Shown: piece by piece, positions 3,780 to 37,112 of the stretch
How positions within the stretch are numbered: position 1 is the stretch's first letter
Layout of the letters: every line of letters begins with the position of its first letter
DNA from: Escherichia coli
GTDB taxonomy: Bacteria > Pseudomonadota > Gammaproteobacteria > Enterobacterales > Enterobacteriaceae
Reading direction: 5' to 3' (one strand)
DNA: 64,000 nt
Assembly: GCF_050920415.1 (NCBI RefSeq)
Contig: NZ_CP169309.1
Notes under the pieces: generated by a model
Database searches by the model: none
What the model saw: the letters and a program-made list of their open reading frames with translations, nothing else
Told to the model about the DNA's origin: nothing
Translations under genes and position numbers: made by a program

Positions 3780-4550
3780 CGTATGGCAGATACCTCTTCA
3801 ACCACCGCTGGCGCACAAACGTTATTACGCGGGCTGGCGGTTCTTAATGCTGTTTATAACGGCTGCCATGACCTGAAAAGTATCGGCGAGTTCACCGGCA
3901 CGACCCGGAGCACAACCCATCGTTTAGTCACCGTTCTGGTGGAACAACGCTACCTGCGCCACGTCCCAACGCAGGGCTACCAACTGGGCGCCAAACTGAT
4001 CGAATTCGGTGCCAGAGCGCTGGAAAGCACCTCGCTGTACGAAGTTGCGCTGCCCGTTTTGCAACGCCTTGCCCGTTACACCCTGGACACCGTGCATCTG
4101 GGGATCGTTGAAGGCGACGAAGTGCTGTATCTGGAGAAGATCAACAGCCAGCGCGGGCTGGAAATGCGCTCACGCCCAGGCCATCGCATGCCACTGGCAA
4201 TCACCGGCATCGGCAAGGCATTGATCCTCAACCGAACAGAAGAAGAGTGGCGCACGCTGTTTAAGACCTGTGGTGATGAAACAAAACTGGGCGCATTTAT
4301 TCAGAACATGCGTCGTTATGCCGCCAGTGGTTTTGCTTTTGATCTGGAAGAGAACGAGCCGACTATCCGTTGCGTTGCAGCGCCGGTTTACAACGCCCGG
4401 GATGAAATTGTGGCGGCTATTTCTGTCGCCAGTACCACTACGTATATGTCACTGGCGCGTCTGGAAGAACTGGCACCTTACGTCAAATCCTGTGCAGAAG
4501 AGATATCCGCTGAACTGGGCTGGGGTAAGCACGTTCACAAAAATAAATAA
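3780..4550 (+). CDS. IclR-family transcriptional regulator, 256 aa
   Basis: Track frame 3696..4550; start set at ATG 3780 (MADTSSTTAGAQTLLRGLAVLNAV...) with AGGAG 6 nt upstream; N-terminal HTH then effector domain typical of IclR/KdgR-type regulators. Confidence 0.8.
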   Translation, partial: RMADTSSTTAGAQTLLRGLAVLNAVYNGCHDLKSIGEFTGTTRSTTHRLVTVLVEQRYLRHVPTQGYQLGAKLIEFGARALESTSLYEVALPVLQRLARYTLDTVHLGIVEGDEVLYLEKINSQRGLEMRSRPGHRMPLAITGIGKALILNRTEEEWRTLFKTCGDETKLGAFIQNMRRYAASGFAFDLEENEPTIRCVAAPVYNARDEIVAAISVASTTTYMSLARLEELAPYVKSCAEEISAELGWGKHVHKNK

Positions 4551-4573
4551 ACCATGACTAAAGGAAACGGCTA

Positions 4574-5578
4574 ATGTCGGGAAACACCTCATTTATTGCC
4601 CTGGACTGGGGAACGTCATCGCTTCGGGCATGGCGTTTTGGCGACTCACCCAATCCACAAGAAAAACGTGAATTCCCGTGGGGGATCATGAAATTACCCT
4701 CCCAGGCAGCAACACGTGAGGACGCTTTCCACGATACGTTTTTACGTGTCTGCGGCGACTGGCTGGCACAATCCCCATGCCCGATTCTGGCTTGCGGCAT
4801 GATCGGCAGTGCGCAAGGGTGGCAACCCGCAGCTTATTTACCTTGCCCGGTCACTCTCGAGGGTCTGGCAAAGCAGTTGACGCCTGTTATCTACCAGCAG
4901 CAGACAATGCTGCACATCATTCCCGGCGTGATTAAAGAAGGTGAAATGCCCGAAGTGATGCGTGGCGAAGAGACACAAATCTTCGGTGCTATCTCGATGG
5001 AACCGGCCCTGCAAAACGCGCTCCGCCAGGGTATGCCTGTGCTGATTGGCTTACCTGGCACACATGCGAAATGGGCGGTAGTTGAAAACAACACCATTAC
5101 CGATTTTCGAACCTTTATGACAGGCGAGTTATTTGATGTTTTATCCCGCCATTCGATTCTCGGTGCCACCATGCGTTCGGGAGATGAACCGCACTGGGAT
5201 GCCTTCGCCCACGGGCTGACAGCGGCACAAGAGCATCATCAGACCGGATTATTATCGACGCTGTTTTCGACCCGTTCGCGCCTGCTGACCAGTAATCTTA
5301 CGCCGTCCTCACAGGGGGATTACCTTTCAGGATTACTGATAGGCCATGAATTATGCGGTCTGGCATCCAGTTTGCTACGTGATTTACCCGCCACAACACC
5401 GATCGCCTTAATCGGTAGCGCCACTCTGAACAGCCGCTATTCACAAGCATTCAGCCACGTTTTTCCCGACAGACAGCTACACGCCATTCCTAATGCCACT
5501 GAACAGGGGTTATGGCGAATCGCCCACGCTGCCGGGCTACTCTCCACCAACGCCAGGGAATGTACTCATGCCATTTAA
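4574..5578 (+). CDS. 2-dehydro-3-deoxygalactonokinase (DgoK)-family sugar-acid kinase, 334 aa
   Basis: MSGNTSFIALDWGTSSLRAW..., ...MRGEETQIFGA..., ...FRTFMTGELFD... align with my recollection of E. coli DgoK; about 40 aa longer at C-terminus. Confidence 0.75.
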   Translation: MSGNTSFIALDWGTSSLRAWRFGDSPNPQEKREFPWGIMKLPSQAATREDAFHDTFLRVCGDWLAQSPCPILACGMIGSAQGWQPAAYLPCPVTLEGLAKQLTPVIYQQQTMLHIIPGVIKEGEMPEVMRGEETQIFGAISMEPALQNALRQGMPVLIGLPGTHAKWAVVENNTITDFRTFMTGELFDVLSRHSILGATMRSGDEPHWDAFAHGLTAAQEHHQTGLLSTLFSTRSRLLTSNLTPSSQGDYLSGLLIGHELCGLASSLLRDLPATTPIALIGSATLNSRYSQAFSHVFPDRQLHAIPNATEQGLWRIAHAAGLLSTNARECTHAI

Positions 5579-6197
5579 TACGCTTTTGCAAAAAACCGGG
5601 TTAGTCGCCATTTTACGCGGCGTGAAACCGGATGAGATTGTCGCCATCGGTGAAAAGCTGTATGCCTCTGGATTTCGCCTGATTGAGATTCCCATGAACT
5701 CGCCGGAGCCGTTGCAAAGTATCAGTTTACTGCGCGACGCCCTGCCTAAGGACTGCCTGGTCGGAGCCGGAACTGTGCTTTCGGTGGAGCACGTCGTCGC
5801 GGTTAAAGAGGCTGGAGGCCAGATTATCGTGATGCCGCATTGCGATACTGCGGTGATCCGTCGTGCCCGTGCGCTGGGTATGTATTGTGCGCCTGGCGTC
5901 GCTACGCCCACCGAAGCTTTTGCTGCCATTGAGCATGGTGCTAATGCCATCAAGCTGTTCCCGGCTGAACAAATTACGCCTGAAGTCACCAAAGCCTGGC
6001 GTGCGGTTATTCCACAATCCGTTCCGATGTTACCGGTTGGCGGTATCACTCCGGAAACCATGGCGCGTTATCTGAGCCACGGTGCAAACGGCTTTGGTCT
6101 CGGTTCTGCGCTTTATCGCCCTGGCATGACGCCAGAGCAGGTCTATAAAAATGCAGTACTGTTTATGAACGCATGGACCAATTTAAACAACAACTAA
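5568..6197 (+). CDS. KDPG/KDPGal-aldolase family protein (DgoA-like), 209 aa
   Basis: Track frame 5493..6197; start set at ATG 5568 (MPFNTLLQKTGLVAILRGVKPDE...), overlapping the kinase gene by 11 nt; aldolase motifs AILRG, GAGTVL, PVGGIT. Confidence 0.75.
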   Translation: MPFNTLLQKTGLVAILRGVKPDEIVAIGEKLYASGFRLIEIPMNSPEPLQSISLLRDALPKDCLVGAGTVLSVEHVVAVKEAGGQIIVMPHCDTAVIRRARALGMYCAPGVATPTEAFAAIEHGANAIKLFPAEQITPEVTKAWRAVIPQSVPMLPVGGITPETMARYLSHGANGFGLGSALYRPGMTPEQVYKNAVLFMNAWTNLNNN

Positions 6198-6221
6198 CTG
6201 ATAAATAAGGATATAAAAACA

Positions 6222-7196
6222 ATGATAAAACATCTTACCTTACCGAAAAAAATGGCTGCAATGGTACTCCTTGCCGGCGCTTCCCTCAGCACTGCGCCTG
6301 TGCAGGCGGCCTCCTACCCAACCAAACAGATCGAGTTAGTCGTACCCTACGCGGCCGGAGGCGGTACGGATCTGGTTGCCCGTGCCTTTGCTGATGCCGC
6401 CAAAAACCATTTGCCCGTCAGCATCGGGGTTATCAATAAACCTGGCGGTGGCGGCGCTATCGGCCTGAGTGAAATCGCCGCTGCCCGCCCTAACGGTTAC
6501 AAAATGGGTTTAGGCACGGTTGAACTGACCACCCTTCCCAGCCTCGGAATGGTGCGTTTTAAAACCAGCGACTTTAAACCCATTGCCCGTCTGAACGCGG
6601 ATCCGGCTGCTATCACCGTCCGTTCTGATGCGCCGTGGAATAGCTATGAAGAATTTATGACTTACGCCAAAGCGAATCCCGGAAAAGTACGCATTGGTAA
6701 CTCAGGCACCGGAGCAATCTGGCATCTGGCGGCAGCTGCACTGGAAGACAAAACGGGCGTGAAGTTTTCTCATGTCCCATATGACGGCGCAGCCCCTGCC
6801 ATTACAGGCCTGTTAGGCGGGCATATTGAAGCGGTTTCCGTAAGCCCAGGTGAAGTTATCAATCATGTGAAAGGCGGCAAGCTGAAGACACTGGTAGTGA
6901 TGGCGGATGAACATATGAAAACCATGCCTGACGTACCGACGTTAAAAGAGAAAGGCGTTGATCTCTCCATCGGCACCTGGCGCGGTCTGATCGTGTCGCA
7001 AAAAACGCCGCAGGATGTGGTTGATGTTCTGGCTAAGGCCGCAAAAGAGACGGCTGAAGAGCCTGCATTCCAGGATGCTCTGCAAAAGTTGAATCTCAAC
7101 TATGCATGGCTTGATGGTGCCAGCTTCCAGACCCAAATCAACGAACAGGAAAAGTACTTTGACGAGTTACTAACTCGGCTGGGCTTGAAAAAATAA
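6222..7196 (+). CDS. tctC: Tripartite tricarboxylate transporter (TTT) periplasmic substrate-binding protein, TctC/Bug family, 324 aa
   Basis: N-terminal signal peptide (MIKHLTLPKKMAAMVLLAGASLSTAPVQA); AAGGGTDL motif typical of TctC/Bug proteins. Confidence 0.8.
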   Translation: MIKHLTLPKKMAAMVLLAGASLSTAPVQAASYPTKQIELVVPYAAGGGTDLVARAFADAAKNHLPVSIGVINKPGGGGAIGLSEIAAARPNGYKMGLGTVELTTLPSLGMVRFKTSDFKPIARLNADPAAITVRSDAPWNSYEEFMTYAKANPGKVRIGNSGTGAIWHLAAAALEDKTGVKFSHVPYDGAAPAITGLLGGHIEAVSVSPGEVINHVKGGKLKTLVVMADEHMKTMPDVPTLKEKGVDLSIGTWRGLIVSQKTPQDVVDVLAKAAKETAEEPAFQDALQKLNLNYAWLDGASFQTQINEQEKYFDELLTRLGLKK

Positions 7197-7212
7197 TCCC
7201 GAGGTACGGTCG

Positions 7213-7719
7213 ATGAACACAAAACAGTCTGTTGCTCAACTCGCCGTACCGCACCGCAAGCGCCTTTCATCCACTGTGGTGGTGGCGCTGTTACTTTGTG
7301 TGGTTGCTGGCGCGGTGATAATTAATGCCGCTGATTTTCCAGCAACTGCCATTGAAACGGATCCCGGTGCAAGTGCCTTCCCTACTTTCTATGCCTGCGC
7401 TCTGATTGTGCTCGCTGTCTTACTGGTGATACGCGATCTTTTGCTGGCAAAACCAGTCCCTTGCGCCAACGCACAGGAAAAACCGGCATTAAGGAAAACG
7501 GCAACAGGAATTGCGGCAACCGCGTTTTATATTGTGGCGATGAGCTACTGCGGTTATCTCATTACTACTCCTGTTTTCCTCATCGTCATTATGACGTTGA
7601 TGGGCTACAGGCGATGGGTACTCACACCGGGTATTGCGCTGCTGTTAACGGCAATCCTCTGGTTGCTGTTTGTCGAAGCGTTACAGGTGCCATTGCCTGT
7701 CGGCACATTTTTCGAATAA
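7213..7719 (+). CDS. tctB: TTT small membrane subunit TctB, 168 aa
   Basis: Small hydrophobic multi-TM protein between tctC-like and tctA-like genes. Confidence 0.75.
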   Translation: MNTKQSVAQLAVPHRKRLSSTVVVALLLCVVAGAVIINAADFPATAIETDPGASAFPTFYACALIVLAVLLVIRDLLLAKPVPCANAQEKPALRKTATGIAATAFYIVAMSYCGYLITTPVFLIVIMTLMGYRRWVLTPGIALLLTAILWLLFVEALQVPLPVGTFFE

Positions 7720-7731
7720 CAGGGGCCTGCA

Positions 7732-9222
7732 ATGTTTGAAAGTGAACTTTTAACTCAGGGGTTTTCGACATTACTCAGTAATCCTCAGGCGCTGCTGTTT
7801 GCCACGTTTGGAGTGATGCTGGGTATTATGATTGGCGCTCTGCCTGGCCTGACAGCGACCATGGGTGTGGCGATTTTGCTGCCTTTCACCTACGGCATGG
7901 AGCCTGTTTCTGGCTTATTGATGATTTGCGGTGTCTTTTTTGGTGGTGTGTATGGTGGTTCTATCACCGCAATTTTGCTCAAAATTCCCGGTACACCTGC
8001 CGCCGCTGCCACCGCCATTGACGGATATGAGCTGACGAAGCAGGGAAAAGCCGGGCTGGCGTTAAGTGCCGCCACGTTCTCTTCTTTTAGCGGTGGAACG
8101 CTCAGCATTATCGTATTGATGTTTCTCTCTCCGGTACTTGCCAGTTGGGCGTTGAAATTTAGTGCCTCGGAGTCCTTCGCCCTGGCAACCTTCGGGCTAA
8201 GTATTATTGCCAGTATTTCCGGTGAGTCACTGATTAAAGGGCTGATTGCCGGGGTTGGCGGATTGCTGATCGCAACGATAGGCCTTGATCCAATGGGCGG
8301 TTTTCCACGCTTTACAGGTGGATTTGTGGAGCTGATGAATGTGCCATTTATCCCGGTGATGATTGGTCTGTTTGCTGCTTCAGAAGCATTCCGCTCTATG
8401 GAGCAAAACCAGCAAATTCGTCAGGGGGCGAAGGTGGCTATCGGCAGTCTGTTACTGCCCTGGCAAACACTACGCCGCATCGCATTAACCATTTTGCGCT
8501 CATCAGGATTAGGGGTTTTTATCGGCATGATCCCCGGTGCGGGGGCAGATATTGCAGCTTTTGTTGCCTATAACGAAACTCGTCGTTTCAGTAAGACGCC
8601 TGAAAACTTTGGTAAGGGTGAGATTAAGGCGGTGGCCTCCTGTGAGGCAGGCGCGAATGGCTGCACCGGTGGCGCATTGTTACCTATGCTGACGTTGGGG
8701 ATCCCAGGCGATGCGGTAACTGCCATCATGCTGGGCGCGTTAACGTTACAAGGGATGCAGCCAGGCCCACTGATGTTTACCGACCACGGCGATATGGTTT
8801 ATACGCTGTTTGTCGGCATGATCTTTTGTTACTTCATGCTGCTAGTTCTTGGACTGCTCTCTTTGAAAGTCATCGGTAACGTGGTGAAGATCCCCGGCAA
8901 TATTCTCACGCCGATGATCCTCGCGCTTTGTGTTGTTGGGACTTATGCGCTGAACAACAGCCTGTTTGATGTTGGCATTATGCTGATTGCAGGCGTGGTG
9001 GGCTATTTCATGCAAAAAGGGGGGTATCCGGCGTCACCCGTAGTGCTGGCATTGATTATGGGGCCAATGGCGGAAAGTAATTTTCGCCGTGCGCTGTCGC
9101 TTTCAGGGGGGTCACTCGACTTCCTGTATACCCGACCGATAACCCTGGCATTGCTGACTCTGGCAGCCTTTACGCTACTGACGCCAATAATACGCAAAAT
9201 TATGCGCTTACGGCGTCAGTAA
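7732..9222 (+). CDS. tctA: TTT large permease subunit TctA, 496 aa
   Basis: About 500-aa polytopic membrane protein with Gly-rich helices, directly after tctB-like gene. Confidence 0.8.
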   Translation: MFESELLTQGFSTLLSNPQALLFATFGVMLGIMIGALPGLTATMGVAILLPFTYGMEPVSGLLMICGVFFGGVYGGSITAILLKIPGTPAAAATAIDGYELTKQGKAGLALSAATFSSFSGGTLSIIVLMFLSPVLASWALKFSASESFALATFGLSIIASISGESLIKGLIAGVGGLLIATIGLDPMGGFPRFTGGFVELMNVPFIPVMIGLFAASEAFRSMEQNQQIRQGAKVAIGSLLLPWQTLRRIALTILRSSGLGVFIGMIPGAGADIAAFVAYNETRRFSKTPENFGKGEIKAVASCEAGANGCTGGALLPMLTLGIPGDAVTAIMLGALTLQGMQPGPLMFTDHGDMVYTLFVGMIFCYFMLLVLGLLSLKVIGNVVKIPGNILTPMILALCVVGTYALNNSLFDVGIMLIAGVVGYFMQKGGYPASPVVLALIMGPMAESNFRRALSLSGGSLDFLYTRPITLALLTLAAFTLLTPIIRKIMRLRRQ

Positions 9223-9276
9223 TTGATATCGCTCCCCGACGTTGGGGAGTATGAGACTGATGACAAACGCTAAATT

Positions 9277-9376
9277 GCCTGATGCGCTGCGCTTATCAGG
9301 CCTACCACAGAAATGCAATATATTGAATTTGCATGCTTTTGTAGGCCGGATAAGGCGATCACGCCGCATCCGGCAT
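9277..9376. repeat. REP pair (BIME) in tctA-udp spacer
   Basis: gcctgatgcgctgcgcttatcaggcctac and gtaggccggataaggcgatcacgccgcatccggca, inverted REP consensus units. Confidence 0.8.
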
Positions 9377-9407
9377 GAACAAAGCACACGTTAACAACAA
9401 TCGGAAT

Positions 9408-9437
9408 GCTCCCCGACGTTGGGGAGCGTTTTTTTAT
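9408..9437 (+). terminator. Hairpin GCTCCCCGACGTTGGGGAGC followed by T7 run; intrinsic-terminator-like, oriented for plus strand
   Basis: Stem CTCCCC/GGGGAG then TTTTTTTATTT; sits just before udp stop; a copy of the hairpin without T-run occurs at 9231-9249. Confidence 0.5.
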
Positions 9438-11272: not shown

Positions 11273-11663
11273 TTTCCTCTTAGTCTATATTTGAGATGGT
11301 GAGTGAACGAATGCGTTTTGCTGCCATCTCTGTCCCCCAAAAAATAATCAGTATGAATTGATTGGAGAGCACGACTCCGCTATTTGACCTTAAGAAAGTC
11401 GGCAAGTCATAGTCATAAATGAGTCTCTTCACTGGCAGACACCTTAAAGATTTACCATCAACTCCCATTCTCAAACAAACATTAATTATTATCAACACAT
11501 TCACATTAATTATAAATTATCTCAGACCTTCCTGATAAAAAGATATTAAAGTGAAACATTTTGTTTTTCACATTTTAGTTCATCCCTATTAGGCGTAAAT
11601 AAAGGTAAAAAATAACAATACTATTTTTCTTTCACAAAAGAATTAACAAAAGGTTTTTCAAGG

Positions 11664-12062
11664 ATGAGTGATATTATTTACCTGACCATAACCGGAGAAC
11701 AACACGGATGTATTTCCTCTCGTTGTGGAACGAGCACATCAATAGGTAATCGCTGGCAGATTGGTCATGAAGATGAAATCTTCGCGTTCTCGCTCTCTAA
11801 TAGTATTACGAATACAGGAAAAGGGTCACATTTGCATGGCCTTAGTTTCTGTAAGTTGATTGACAAAAGCTCCCCGTTACTTATTAACGCTATTAACAAT
11901 AACGAGCAGTTGTTCATGGAGTTTGACTTCTATCGGATCAATAGATTTGGTCGATGGGAGAAATATTACAACATTCAACTCCGCGGCGCGCTCTTATCAG
12001 CAATCAATCACCTGTTTACGGAGAACAATCTGGATACAGAAACCATCACTGTCAGTTATTAA
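11664..12062 (+). CDS. Hcp-family (T6SS tube protein) domain ORF, 132 aa, ends at TAA in frame with the downstream toxin-like ORF
   Basis: MSDIIYLTITGEQHG...GKGSHLHGLSFCKLIDKSSPLL...FDFYRINRFGRWEKYYNIQL fits the Hcp-family pattern; AT-rich. Confidence 0.7.
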   Translation: MSDIIYLTITGEQHGCISSRCGTSTSIGNRWQIGHEDEIFAFSLSNSITNTGKGSHLHGLSFCKLIDKSSPLLINAINNNEQLFMEFDFYRINRFGRWEKYYNIQLRGALLSAINHLFTENNLDTETITVSY

Positions 12063-12107
12063 TATATACTCTCCAGGCATCTGATTGCTAATACTGAATT
12101 TAGTTAT

Positions 12108-12812
12108 TTGGCATTTCCCGATAACTACAATCGTCTGTTTATACCACGGCCAAAAACTAAAGATGATAATGGCCTCAAAACACTCAATAGTAAAGCTGTT
12201 GGCAGACTGCTTGCTGCTGGCGGCATATACAATGGGAATATCGAAGGATTCAGGGAAACAGCAAACAAGTTGGGGGGAGATGCACCTGCTGGTTACGATC
12301 AAGTTATGGATAACAAAGGGTTACTCATCGCTGGTGCTTCAATAGTTGCTGGAGCAGTTCTGGGGAGAATGAGACTCCCTGATTTGGAATCACTTGAGCA
12401 TTTCGGAGCCAGAGGAGCAGTATCAGGAAGACCATTTAATCCCGACCTTGCCGGTGGTCCAATAGAAAATCTGACGACAGATGGCGTAACAATCAACAGG
12501 GAAGGTATCGCTATTGTTGAAAAACACATAGCCAGATTTGGTCATGACCCTGTAAATGAAGTGATGATCAATAGACTGAAAGACATTGAGAAAGGAAAAA
12601 TCCCCCCAGAACAAGTAGATCTTAACTTCTATACTCATGAATGTCGGGAATATCAGCGTTACTGTAATCTTGGTTGGGAAACAGGACAACCTGATGGTGA
12701 CGCAGGCTATGCACTCTGGAATCATACGCATACTGCTACTCTAGAAGATTATAAACTTAAGGGAGAACTTAATGACTTATACCACCAGGATGCACTTGAC
12801 TATGATAACTGA
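12108..12812 (+). CDS. Toxin-like C-terminal domain ORF (class undetermined), same frame as upstream Hcp ORF; 234 aa from TTG
   Basis: Same reading frame as 11664..12062 with only one stop (TAA 12060-12062) and 15 open codons between; no ATG or SD of its own. Confidence 0.6.
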   Translation: MAFPDNYNRLFIPRPKTKDDNGLKTLNSKAVGRLLAAGGIYNGNIEGFRETANKLGGDAPAGYDQVMDNKGLLIAGASIVAGAVLGRMRLPDLESLEHFGARGAVSGRPFNPDLAGGPIENLTTDGVTINREGIAIVEKHIARFGHDPVNEVMINRLKDIEKGKIPPEQVDLNFYTHECREYQRYCNLGWETGQPDGDAGYALWNHTHTATLEDYKLKGELNDLYHQDALDYDN

Positions 12813-13047
12813 AACTGAAATTAACGTACTGAAAGTTATGGCTGAGAAAGATATAAACTGGAACTGGATGAATCTCGATCGCACACTATCTATAAGGCAA
12901 ATTCCAGGATTCGGTAATGTTGTTAACATTGTTAACAAATTAGCTAACGAGGGTTTGGTTATTATTGAGGATAGCGGACATAAGTCTATGCCTCACTACC
13001 ACGTTACTGAAAAGGGATACAATCTCGTGAAAAGTGAGAATAAATAA
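12802..13047 (+). CDS. Small putative immunity protein, 81 aa
   Basis: ATG at 12802 overlaps the toxin ORF stop (ATGATAACTGA); track frame 12772..13047. Confidence 0.55.
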   Translation: MITETEINVLKVMAEKDINWNWMNLDRTLSIRQIPGFGNVVNIVNKLANEGLVIIEDSGHKSMPHYHVTEKGYNLVKSENK

Positions 13048-13141
13048 CGTAGCGTTGATTACTGAACAAATCGCTCAGGATTATATTTTGCGAAAAAAAT
13101 GATTCGGTTATTTCTGTGTCTGAACGGCCGCAGATAGCAAA

Positions 13142-13165
13142 ATGGCTTCCGGTGATGGAAGCCAT
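13142..13165 (+). terminator. 9-bp stem hairpin ATGGCTTCC-ggtgat-GGAAGCCAT downstream of the islet
   Basis: Perfect inverted repeat read directly; weak T tract (cagattattgg). Confidence 0.3.
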
Positions 13166-13195
13166 CAGATTATTGGCAAAGTGCGTGTTGTTCAT

Positions 13196-13226
13196 GCCGG
13201 ATGCGGCGTGAACGCCTTATCTGGCC
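13196..13226. repeat. REP element
   Basis: gccggatgcggcgtgaacgccttatctggcc. Confidence 0.75.
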
Positions 13227-13333
13227 AACTAAATCTTGAAAATTCAATAAATTGAATAAATTATGTAGGCCTGGTATCAGGCAGTTTCGCCTCTTTCATC
13301 GTACTGCAATTTACAGTGACTCGTTAATACTCA

Positions 13334-34896: not shown

Positions 34897-35084
34897 TATG
34901 GATTGCCTGTAAAGTTCATCGCTTTCTGCTTTCTATCATCGCAGGAGAAGACGTAAAAGCAAGCGTTTAGCGACTCTTTATGAAGTCTGAAAAATGAGGA
35001 ATTGCTGCGAGTATAACGCTTACACGTGGGGATTTATGTTTTGCTGGTAGTTTCGTGATCGGCACCTCGCGCCAGGATGGCTTT

Positions 35085-37112
35085 ATGCACTATCGCAATG
35101 TGGTTTGTTTGTTGTCTTTTTTAGTTCCGTCAGCGTGGGGATGCTCGCTCGGTGAACCTGATCATAATATTTACCAGAAACAGGGAAAAGGCGTGGTATA
35201 CCTGCGCCCTAATGAAGAGACAAATCTTTCGTTACCGGAAGTAAATTACCAGCGACTGCGTCGTTTACCTGATTTATTCATTGCTCCTGACACCCAGGAC
35301 GATGGGGAAAAAGAACCGCCGTTAAACGACCTTACCACCGATTATATTGATCAGGGCGCATGGGCCTGGTATCCAAATTATGCTTACTTTAGCGATGGCC
35401 GTTTTGTCATTTATGCGGGCAAGATTGTACAAAATCCATCTGGTTATCCACCGGTCGATGTAGCCTCGTTCCATTCATGGGGCGATTTTGCCGTCGATAA
35501 AAACAGCATTTATTACAAAGGCCAACGGACAGATGAAAATGGCGGCAAGCAACGCGTCGATGAAAAAACGCTGCGCAAAGTAGGATTAGGTAGCCGTTGG
35601 ATGCCTGATCGGCTGGGATTGGTGCTACGTGACGCGCATTTTCTTTATATCGATGGGCACCGTTTTGATAACCCAGAGAGTTTTTCCGTGATCGCGCAAA
35701 AATCCTGGGGTCAACAAGGGAAATTCGCTTCAACGTTTTTTCCCTGCATTGCCTACCCCTTTGGCCCGTGGGATATGCTTACCCGCACACGAACAAAGTT
35801 GCTGATCAATGGAGAGCAACTGGATGCCGATCCGGACAATTTTTCTGTCGTTCGCTGGATGCCCGGCACCCTGTTTAGCTGGCGTGATAAACACGGCGAG
35901 CATCGTAAAGTCATTGATCAGGTTCGTTTGGCAAGGAATGAAGATATATCCCGGCAATGTGACAACTTTACGCTGTTAGAAAAAAAGGTGTTCTGGCGCA
36001 AGGGGCCAGATTGTGAGCAGGAAGAATTACCCAGTCTCGACCCGGAGCAGTTTCACCCGATCAGTGACATCGTGGCGCAGTATCAGGACAAGTTGTATGC
36101 AATCAGTAAGACCCCCTTCGGTGAAAATCAGTTGGAGATCATCACCCTGGATAACCCGAATCTGATCATCAATAAACGTTTTAATGCAGGAAGGCATCAT
36201 GGCTATTTACTCACCCGATCAACAAATTGGGACGGACATGAGAAAGACGGTTTACAGGTGTTTGAATCCGTTGGCCCACTGATACTGCTGGACTACCGTG
36301 TGCCGAATGAAGCAGATGCACACCGTGGCAATAACCCGCATTACAAAAAATGGTTTGCTCGCGACGATCGTTACGTTTATGCATTCGATGGTGCGCAGCT
36401 TTGGCGTTACCCTACGCAATATCCCAAAGCGGCACGTATCAAAGCCGCTAAAGACGACTGGCTGAACGTCAGCCTTAGCCAGTTGGACGGTGAGATAATG
36501 AAAGATGGCTCATTTACTCCCACTGGCATCAAGCACACATCCTCTTTAAAACCCGCCAAGGCATACGAAGATGGGGACAATGAATCTTCATTTATCGTAA
36601 ATAAATCGGGAGTAGGCTGGCGAAAAGCGCTTTCACCCGACCTGCAATGGAGTGAGTGGCATTACCTGGAAGGCATTGATCCAAAAAAGTTTCATCTGAT
36701 TACCGAACGTATTGCACAGTACAAAAACCAACTCTACGTCGTCAGGCGCTCGCATTTTGGAGAAGATCGGCTCGAAATCATAGAGTTGGAGTCATCTTTG
36801 CCCATCAAAAATAAACCGATAAATACGGGCAAGGAGCGTCATTACTTTCTGCAAAGTACCCGACAAAAACAGGATGTGCAGGTATTCACCAGCAGCGGTG
36901 CGCTGATAGCAACGGAGCGCTTTGCTTATGACGATAGCTATGTCTACACCTGGATTGACGATCAGCTTTATCGCACACCCTCCCCCTGCCCAGCGAAAAC
37001 ATACGTCAGAGAAAAGAATGTCCGTGAAATTCATAACAGCGACATTATTATTCCGGTGACGGAGGAATCGTGCCGGAACGCAGCAGCAGACGGGCAAACT
37101 TTGAAGCCCTGA
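35085..37112 (+). CDS. Large secreted DKNYY-repeat family protein, 675 aa from ATG (685 from upstream GTG)
   Basis: Signal peptide MHYRNVVCLLSFLVPSAWGC; motif DKNSIYYKGQR; two internally duplicated segments (FHPISDIVAQYQDKLY...FGENQLEIITLD / FHLITERIAQYKNQLY...FGEDRLEIIELE); AGGA 9 nt before ATG 35085. Confidence 0.7.
   Translation: MHYRNVVCLLSFLVPSAWGCSLGEPDHNIYQKQGKGVVYLRPNEETNLSLPEVNYQRLRRLPDLFIAPDTQDDGEKEPPLNDLTTDYIDQGAWAWYPNYAYFSDGRFVIYAGKIVQNPSGYPPVDVASFHSWGDFAVDKNSIYYKGQRTDENGGKQRVDEKTLRKVGLGSRWMPDRLGLVLRDAHFLYIDGHRFDNPESFSVIAQKSWGQQGKFASTFFPCIAYPFGPWDMLTRTRTKLLINGEQLDADPDNFSVVRWMPGTLFSWRDKHGEHRKVIDQVRLARNEDISRQCDNFTLLEKKVFWRKGPDCEQEELPSLDPEQFHPISDIVAQYQDKLYAISKTPFGENQLEIITLDNPNLIINKRFNAGRHHGYLLTRSTNWDGHEKDGLQVFESVGPLILLDYRVPNEADAHRGNNPHYKKWFARDDRYVYAFDGAQLWRYPTQYPKAARIKAAKDDWLNVSLSQLDGEIMKDGSFTPTGIKHTSSLKPAKAYEDGDNESSFIVNKSGVGWRKALSPDLQWSEWHYLEGIDPKKFHLITERIAQYKNQLYVVRRSHFGEDRLEIIELESSLPIKNKPINTGKERHYFLQSTRQKQDVQVFTSSGALIATERFAYDDSYVYTWIDDQLYRTPSPCPAKTYVREKNVREIHNSDIIIPVTEESCRNAAADGQTLKP

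Follow-up and report, generated by a model that had tools for sequence, protein, structure and literature searches.

The specialized Hcp proteins known as Hcp-ETs are a type VI secretion system (T6SS) effector class in which a toxin is fused C-terminal to an Hcp (TssD) domain, and the logic of effector–immunity pairs has been described for them (PMC6730261, PMC6099711). Among these, Hcp-ET1/ETI1 has been characterized in Escherichia coli O104:H4 C227-11 and in strain 55989 (Ma et al. 2017, as summarized in PMC6730261 and PMC6099711). Here we compare it with a gene in the window, the name used throughout for the whole 64,000-nucleotide stretch of E. coli DNA that was analyzed. Both genes have the specialized-Hcp architecture and a small gene directly after them, and Hcp-ET1 has Glu at the position equivalent to the lesion in the window. 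Identity to Hcp-ET1 of C227-11 is 73% over residues 1–230 of the window frame, which take in the Hcp domain, the conserved linker and a hydrophobic stretch. Similarity ends after residue 230, and the unrelated sequence beyond reads as the usual polymorphic-toxin pattern.

The two systems differ in most other respects. Hcp-ET1 is located at the yhhY–yrhA locus in C227-11, its toxin tip gives weak HNH and Col-Pyo_DNase signals (HNH at E=0.013, residues 322–343), and the protein downstream is YrhA, of 164 aa. The window gene, in contrast, is dead and lies between ysgA and metE, its toxin is all-alpha with neither signal, and the protein downstream has 81 aa. A C-terminal HNH or colicin-type DNase, which defines the Hcp-ET1 subtype, is thus not found in the window toxin. 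We rejected the identification of the window gene with Hcp-ET1 of 55989, given that the ysgA–metE junction is empty there and only the first 230 residues are shared.

A nearer counterpart exists in public annotation. RefSeq/PGAP lists AC2A8Y_RS24450 of E. coli N96 (NZ_CM169999.1) as a tssD pseudogene with the remark "internal stop". It has the same locus, coordinates relative to ysgA/metE and TAA codon as the window, at 99.8% identity with 4 differences in 2.4 kb, and nothing of substance sets it apart except the strain background. Because the two genomes diverge by about 0.8% over 40 kb, N96 is a different strain carrying the same allele. The window feature is therefore an ordinary nonsense pseudogene of a known T6SS effector class, already flagged by public annotation. 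A literature search for Hcp-ET pseudogenes returned nothing relevant.

A single reading frame between ysgA and metE

The gene lies in an islet of ~2 kb with a GC content of about 34–45%, against about 55% in the flanks (composition profile). Gene order in the window is ubiB, rmuC, udp, ysgA, the islet, metE and metR, onward to the ECA gene cluster, and the window is collinear with N96. In 55989, ysgA abuts metE directly. Of 5426 complete E. coli genomes, 848 carry the islet, in every case on the chromosome. A promoter and terminator scan was uninformative (9 sites versus 6.6 expected). Coordinates of the features are collected in Table 1.

Table 1. Features of the ysgA–metE islet, in window coordinates
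Feature	Position	Strand	Description
Low-GC islet	11280..13330	.	Between ysgA and metE; holds both the effector pseudogene and the immunity-like gene
5' part of hcp-ET pseudogene	11664..12059	+	Codons 1–132; Hcp (TssD) domain without its last strand
TAA nonsense codon	12060..12062	+	Codon 133; GAA = Glu in intact orthologues
Untranslated remainder, part 1	12063..12404	+	End of the Hcp fold, linker KTLNSK..GRLLAAGGIYNGN.., hydrophobic segment shared with Hcp-ET1
Untranslated remainder, part 2	12405..12812	+	135-aa toxin core, codons 248–382, plus TGA stop
Putative immunity gene, 81 aa, intact	12802..13047	+	11-nt overlap with the 3' end of the toxin frame; AGGA 9 nt before the ATG

Several other features of the setting were recorded. 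Sub-threshold Rfam matches to naRNA4, ES036 and STnc100 at 13133–13272, between the immunity-like gene and metE, are probably REP-type repeats rather than genes. Between rmuC and udp, which are adjacent in 55989, the window has an accessory block of roughly 5.5 kb (about 3960–9222) with an IclR regulator, a 2-dehydro-3-deoxygalactonokinase, a KDPGal aldolase and a TctABC-type tricarboxylate transporter. The window and N96 differ by an indel of about 178 bp at about 9250–9408, in or near the tctA-like–udp intergenic region, where their alignment breaks. Farther along, a 685-aa ORF between lptM and cyaY (35055–37112, +), hypothetical in N96, contains an internal duplication of two "...QY.[DN][KQ]LY..........E..LEII.L..." segments and has no match in NCBIfam.

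The first-pass annotation had joined the ORFs 11664–12062 (132 aa) and 12108–12812 (234 aa, with a TTG start) into one reading frame broken by a single TAA, and direct reading, the ORF listing and the translation all bear this out. The span 11664–12812 is one frame of 383 codons that ends in TGA at 12810–12812, and its sole internal stop is the TAA at 12060–12062. Fifteen sense codons (YILSRHLIANTEFSY) separate this TAA from the TTG at 12108, and the other two plus-strand frames across the same span contain 18 and 44 stops. Given that the chance of 249 open codons after the TAA is ~8e-8 at the local base composition, continuity of the frame past the stop is not accidental. No second lesion beyond the TAA was found in the window copy. 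The same annotation held that the downstream segment has no ATG or Shine-Dalgarno of its own. This stands for TTG 12108, which has no Shine-Dalgarno-like motif within 20 nt upstream, but further in-frame ATGs follow at 12306, 12369 and 12564. The second of these is preceded by GGGGAGA and is probably not a real start, because the spacing to the ATG is merely 1 nt. ATG 12369 opens a 147-aa ORF (12369–12812) that holds the entire toxin core and is often reported by gene callers as a separate "colicin" protein, for example in Shigella dysenteriae.

To place the stop within the Hcp fold, we turned to a 98%-identical intact orthologue. TIGR03344 covers its residues 1–147 (126 bits against a cut-off of 58.9, E=1e-36), Pfam T6SS_HCP (PF05638) its residues 6–135 (E=1e-13), and the PDB Hcp structure 6a2v aligns to residues 2–145 (E=7e-15), which places an Hcp/TssD domain at the N-terminus. 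The segment SYEYILSRH aligns with SYRKVVWEH of 6a2v, the C-terminal strand, and codon 133 of an Hcp domain of about 147 codons sits in this SYxxxxxxH strand. Since the Hcp models extend to residues 135–147, the stop truncates the Hcp fold itself. The earlier description of a broken Hcp–toxin frame accordingly holds, with one correction: the break is inside the Hcp domain and not at the domain boundary. With the last strand of the fold removed by the stop, the 132-aa fragment probably cannot serve as a tube subunit. Fusion of a toxin to the C-terminus of Hcp is retained in the orthologues and cut in the window by the TAA at codon 133. The window gene is a dead member, that is, a pseudogene, of the Hcp-ET family.

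Ancestral state, spread and decay of the nonsense allele

Intact orthologues occupy the same locus in other strains. E. coli SCU-102 has an intact tssD CDS of 382 aa between ysgA and metE (WP_001280045.1), and WP9-S17 has one of 377 aa. The alignment to intact homologues that the first-pass annotation had proposed as a check gives GAA at the site of the window TAA in SCU-102, WP9-S17 and UM146, so that the change in the window is a G-to-T transversion at 12060 that turns GAA (Glu-133) into TAA. The SCU-102 gene is the same gene with the same neighbors and immunity gene (DNA ~97% identical over 2.4 kb, and 97.9% over a 1.6-kb query) and differs from the window in having GAA at codon 133 and a complete Hcp–toxin fusion. 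Fusions of this kind, 376–383 aa long, are usual in Citrobacter, Salmonella and other E. coli, and the residue in their codon-133 column is E, rarely K or D. Because intact orthologues, fusions in other genera and Hcp-ET1 all hold a sense codon here, the fusion is ancestral and the stop derived. The proposal of an ancestral fusion of ~380 aa hit by a nonsense mutation is thereby upheld, and homologues are not uniformly two genes separated by a stop.

The derived stop has been inherited widely. A census with an exact 50-mer that spans the stop and avoids a polymorphism at 12042 found the TAA in 23 of the 843 complete E. coli genomes that carry the gene; the site differs in the other 820. A first census with a 61-mer centered on the TAA had returned 2 exact matches among 846, an undercount because the neighboring polymorphism at 12042 splits the carriers. 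Carriers include N96, MFDS1022581, many O121:H19 STEC, 13E0725 and 13E0780, O103 ML775, NCTC9064 and bovine isolates. In a large protein collection, the exact 132-aa product occurs on about 50 public contigs, "Escherichia sp." assemblies and STEC_7v among them, and it is listed in 66 blocks of a sequence collection. Four of the eight loci compared match the window at 100% wherever they cover it (2.4 kb in L011, L012 and L014; 2.05 kb in L018).

The TAA is found on two flanking haplotypes, the window type and an O121/13E0725 type. Around 12042–12303 the window matches SCU-102 (GAA) and 13E0725 matches O145 (GAA), whereas both have T at 12060 and share derived sites further 3'. The two haplotypes therefore point either to two independent G-to-T events or to short-patch recombination in a mosaic locus. 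Lineages with the stop also show the secondary decay expected of a pseudogene: IS2 lies in the toxin region of MFDS1022581 and of the carrier at locus L017, another IS has inserted in the carrier at L013, and 13E0725 has a 22-bp deletion. The lesion had been called recent in the first-pass annotation. This agrees with the clean remainder of the frame in the window, but the allele is old enough to be common to several lineages, and some of these show additional decay.

Codon 133 is not the only site of inactivation. An independent nonsense mutation, W98*, is present in 257 of 845 complete E. coli genomes, including UM146, Nissle 1917 and the type strain ATCC 11775. In UM146, where the gene is annotated as pseudo, it lies at 1912–1914 of locus L004, equivalent to window codon 98 (about 11955–11957). 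Like the window allele, W98* is a single nonsense mutation in the same gene at the same locus with immunity genes retained, and it differs in its codon, in being linked to another toxin-tip variant and in being much commoner. About a third of gene carriers are nonsense-inactivated at codon 98 or codon 133. Insertions have struck the same gene elsewhere, with an IS3-family element in O145 and IS1 in MSB1_3B.

The toxin core and the immunity-like gene

The 135-aa toxin core (12405–12809) has 472 cluster representatives at 50% clustering, mostly at the extreme C-terminus of their proteins, and these include an Rhs protein and proteins of ~5200 aa. Matches to the core in the AlphaFold DB are the ends of S-type pyocin/colicin-like and PAAR proteins. 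The homologous C-termini of S-type pyocins, colicin-like, Rhs, PAAR and very large secreted proteins are 43–58% identical to the core with a TM of 0.9, and are attached to delivery modules other than the Hcp of the window gene. Occurrence at the ends of Rhs, PAAR, S-type pyocin and ~5200-aa proteins is a polymorphic-toxin signature and marks the core as a putative toxin module.

Profile, sequence and structure searches found no relative of the core in Pfam, NCBIfam or PDB. The window toxin, as full protein or as core, had no Pfam match even at E<=10, and 41 members of the toxin family yielded a single Pfam match, HNH_4 at E=0.08. An AlphaFold 2 (AF2) model of the core, built on a diverse 41-sequence alignment, reached a pLDDT of 96.9 and is all-alpha, not beta-beta-alpha-Me, with no significant PDB neighbor. 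An earlier AF2 model of the 234-aa C-terminal part from a shallow alignment (pLDDT 52.6) was discarded. Twelve residues are invariant in the family (G17, H41, R57, L58, D72, Y76, H78, E79, E82, R85, W105 and H109 in core numbering), and the window frame keeps all of them. The invariant His, Glu, Arg and Asp suggest a putative hydrolase, perhaps metal-dependent. Database labels of "HNH endonuclease" and "colicin" on fragments of the gene were set aside, as no profile match supports them. PF26362 is precomputed for homologues with a different N-terminus, and an AFDB entry names one such homologue of 380 aa "DUF8093 domain-containing"; the label may refer to the N-terminal domain of that protein.

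The 81-aa gene downstream is annotated as an intact CDS (WP_000627422.1) in N96 and MFDS1022581, and its exact sequence occurs on 713 contigs. The protein gives a weak winged-helix signal at best. The small downstream gene or genes are annotated as intact in every locus inspected. Position and the logic of effector–immunity pairs suggest a putative immunity role. A second small gene, ~92% identical to the window immunity gene, was observed in WP9-S17 (L003 3127–3372) and UM146 (L004 3083–3328), whose loci have a different toxin-tip variant; it stands after the presumed immunity gene belonging to that variant. This second gene resembles the orphan immunity modules of other polymorphic-toxin loci.

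Weighing the readings of the locus

We hold with high confidence that the feature is a pseudogene of a specialized ("evolved") Hcp-ET effector inactivated by a G-to-T nonsense mutation. The ancestral gene would have encoded a 382-aa protein in which a conserved linker joins an Hcp tube-protein domain to a C-terminal toxin. We infer that this protein was delivered in a T6SS-dependent manner, loaded into the secretion tube and fired at neighboring bacteria, while the small gene directly downstream would have shielded the producing cell and its kin. In this lineage, the transversion at Glu-133 would halt translation after 132 residues, within the last beta-strand of the Hcp fold. The resulting fragment would carry no toxin and could most likely not form a proper Hcp ring, so its loss of function is the expected outcome. 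The 250 codons past the stop would be a still-clean untranslated relic, and the immunity-like gene has probably stayed intact since it protects against relatives with a working toxin.

A broader interpretation is that loss of the toxin was itself selected, with repeated, convergent conversion of an attacker into an immune-only "defender". As a separate part of it, the toxin core, a confidently modeled all-alpha domain with no Pfam or PDB relative, may represent an uncharacterized bacteriocin or T6SS killing activity. The pattern of losses would fit such selection, given the TAA on two haplotypes, W98* in about 30% of carriers, the several IS insertions and the kept immunity gene. We nonetheless regard this interpretation as tentative and rather unlikely.

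Far less weight falls on the idea that some full-length Hcp–toxin is still made by programmed or otherwise useful low-level readthrough, an option raised by the first-pass annotation that we judge very improbable. The frame after the stop is fully open with no second lesion in the window, all invariant toxin residues are present, and the sequence is compatible with some functional product at low level; every stop codon is read through at some basal rate. The stop context, however, is UAA followed by U, regarded as the context in which E. coli terminates translation most efficiently. The predicted fold of the RNA surrounding and following the stop is no more stable than that of shuffled controls (z = -0.69), and no Rfam recoding element was matched at the site. 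The stop is also not a conserved feature, because 820 of 843 genomes (97% of carriers) and the other genera lack it, and TAA carriers gain IS insertions and deletions. A conserved stop with stimulatory context or RNA structure, as a recoding site would have, is therefore not what is seen here.

We give equally little credence to a functional split gene, in which a truncated Hcp and a toxin fragment initiated separately at TTG 12108 or ATG 12369 are both used. Gene callers do report ORFs of 234, 161 and 147 aa under the names "HNH endonuclease" or "colicin", and GGGGAGA stands before ATG 12369. Yet the GGAG there is only 1 nt from the ATG, TTG 12108 has no Shine-Dalgarno motif, and the Hcp fragment is without its last strand. 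A toxin core separated from an Hcp, PAAR, Rhs or pyocin carrier would have no delivery route, and homologous cores are nearly always fused to a carrier. A conserved two-gene arrangement exists in no lineage, and the break points vary by lineage. A sequencing or assembly error, with GAA and an intact gene in the real genome, is practically negligible: a single-base difference is the type of change an error could produce, but the same T recurs in 23 complete genomes (of 843) that come from a range of laboratories, hosts and countries, in independent assemblies, both draft and complete, that share 100% identity across 2.4 kb, and in N96, a different strain. Of the three options first offered (nonsense mutation, sequencing error and readthrough), nonsense mutation alone survives.

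Read as a nonsense pseudogene, the locus has direct consequences for annotation. The span 11664–12812 should be recorded as one pseudogene and not as two genes, and database entries of 132–234 aa named "HNH endonuclease", "colicin" or "secreted protein Hcp" are fragments of a dead gene. The locus adds one more case of orphan T6SS effector decay with the immunity gene retained. Beyond this, the points of wider interest are that the locus has been inactivated repeatedly across E. coli and that it carries an uncharacterized toxin domain.
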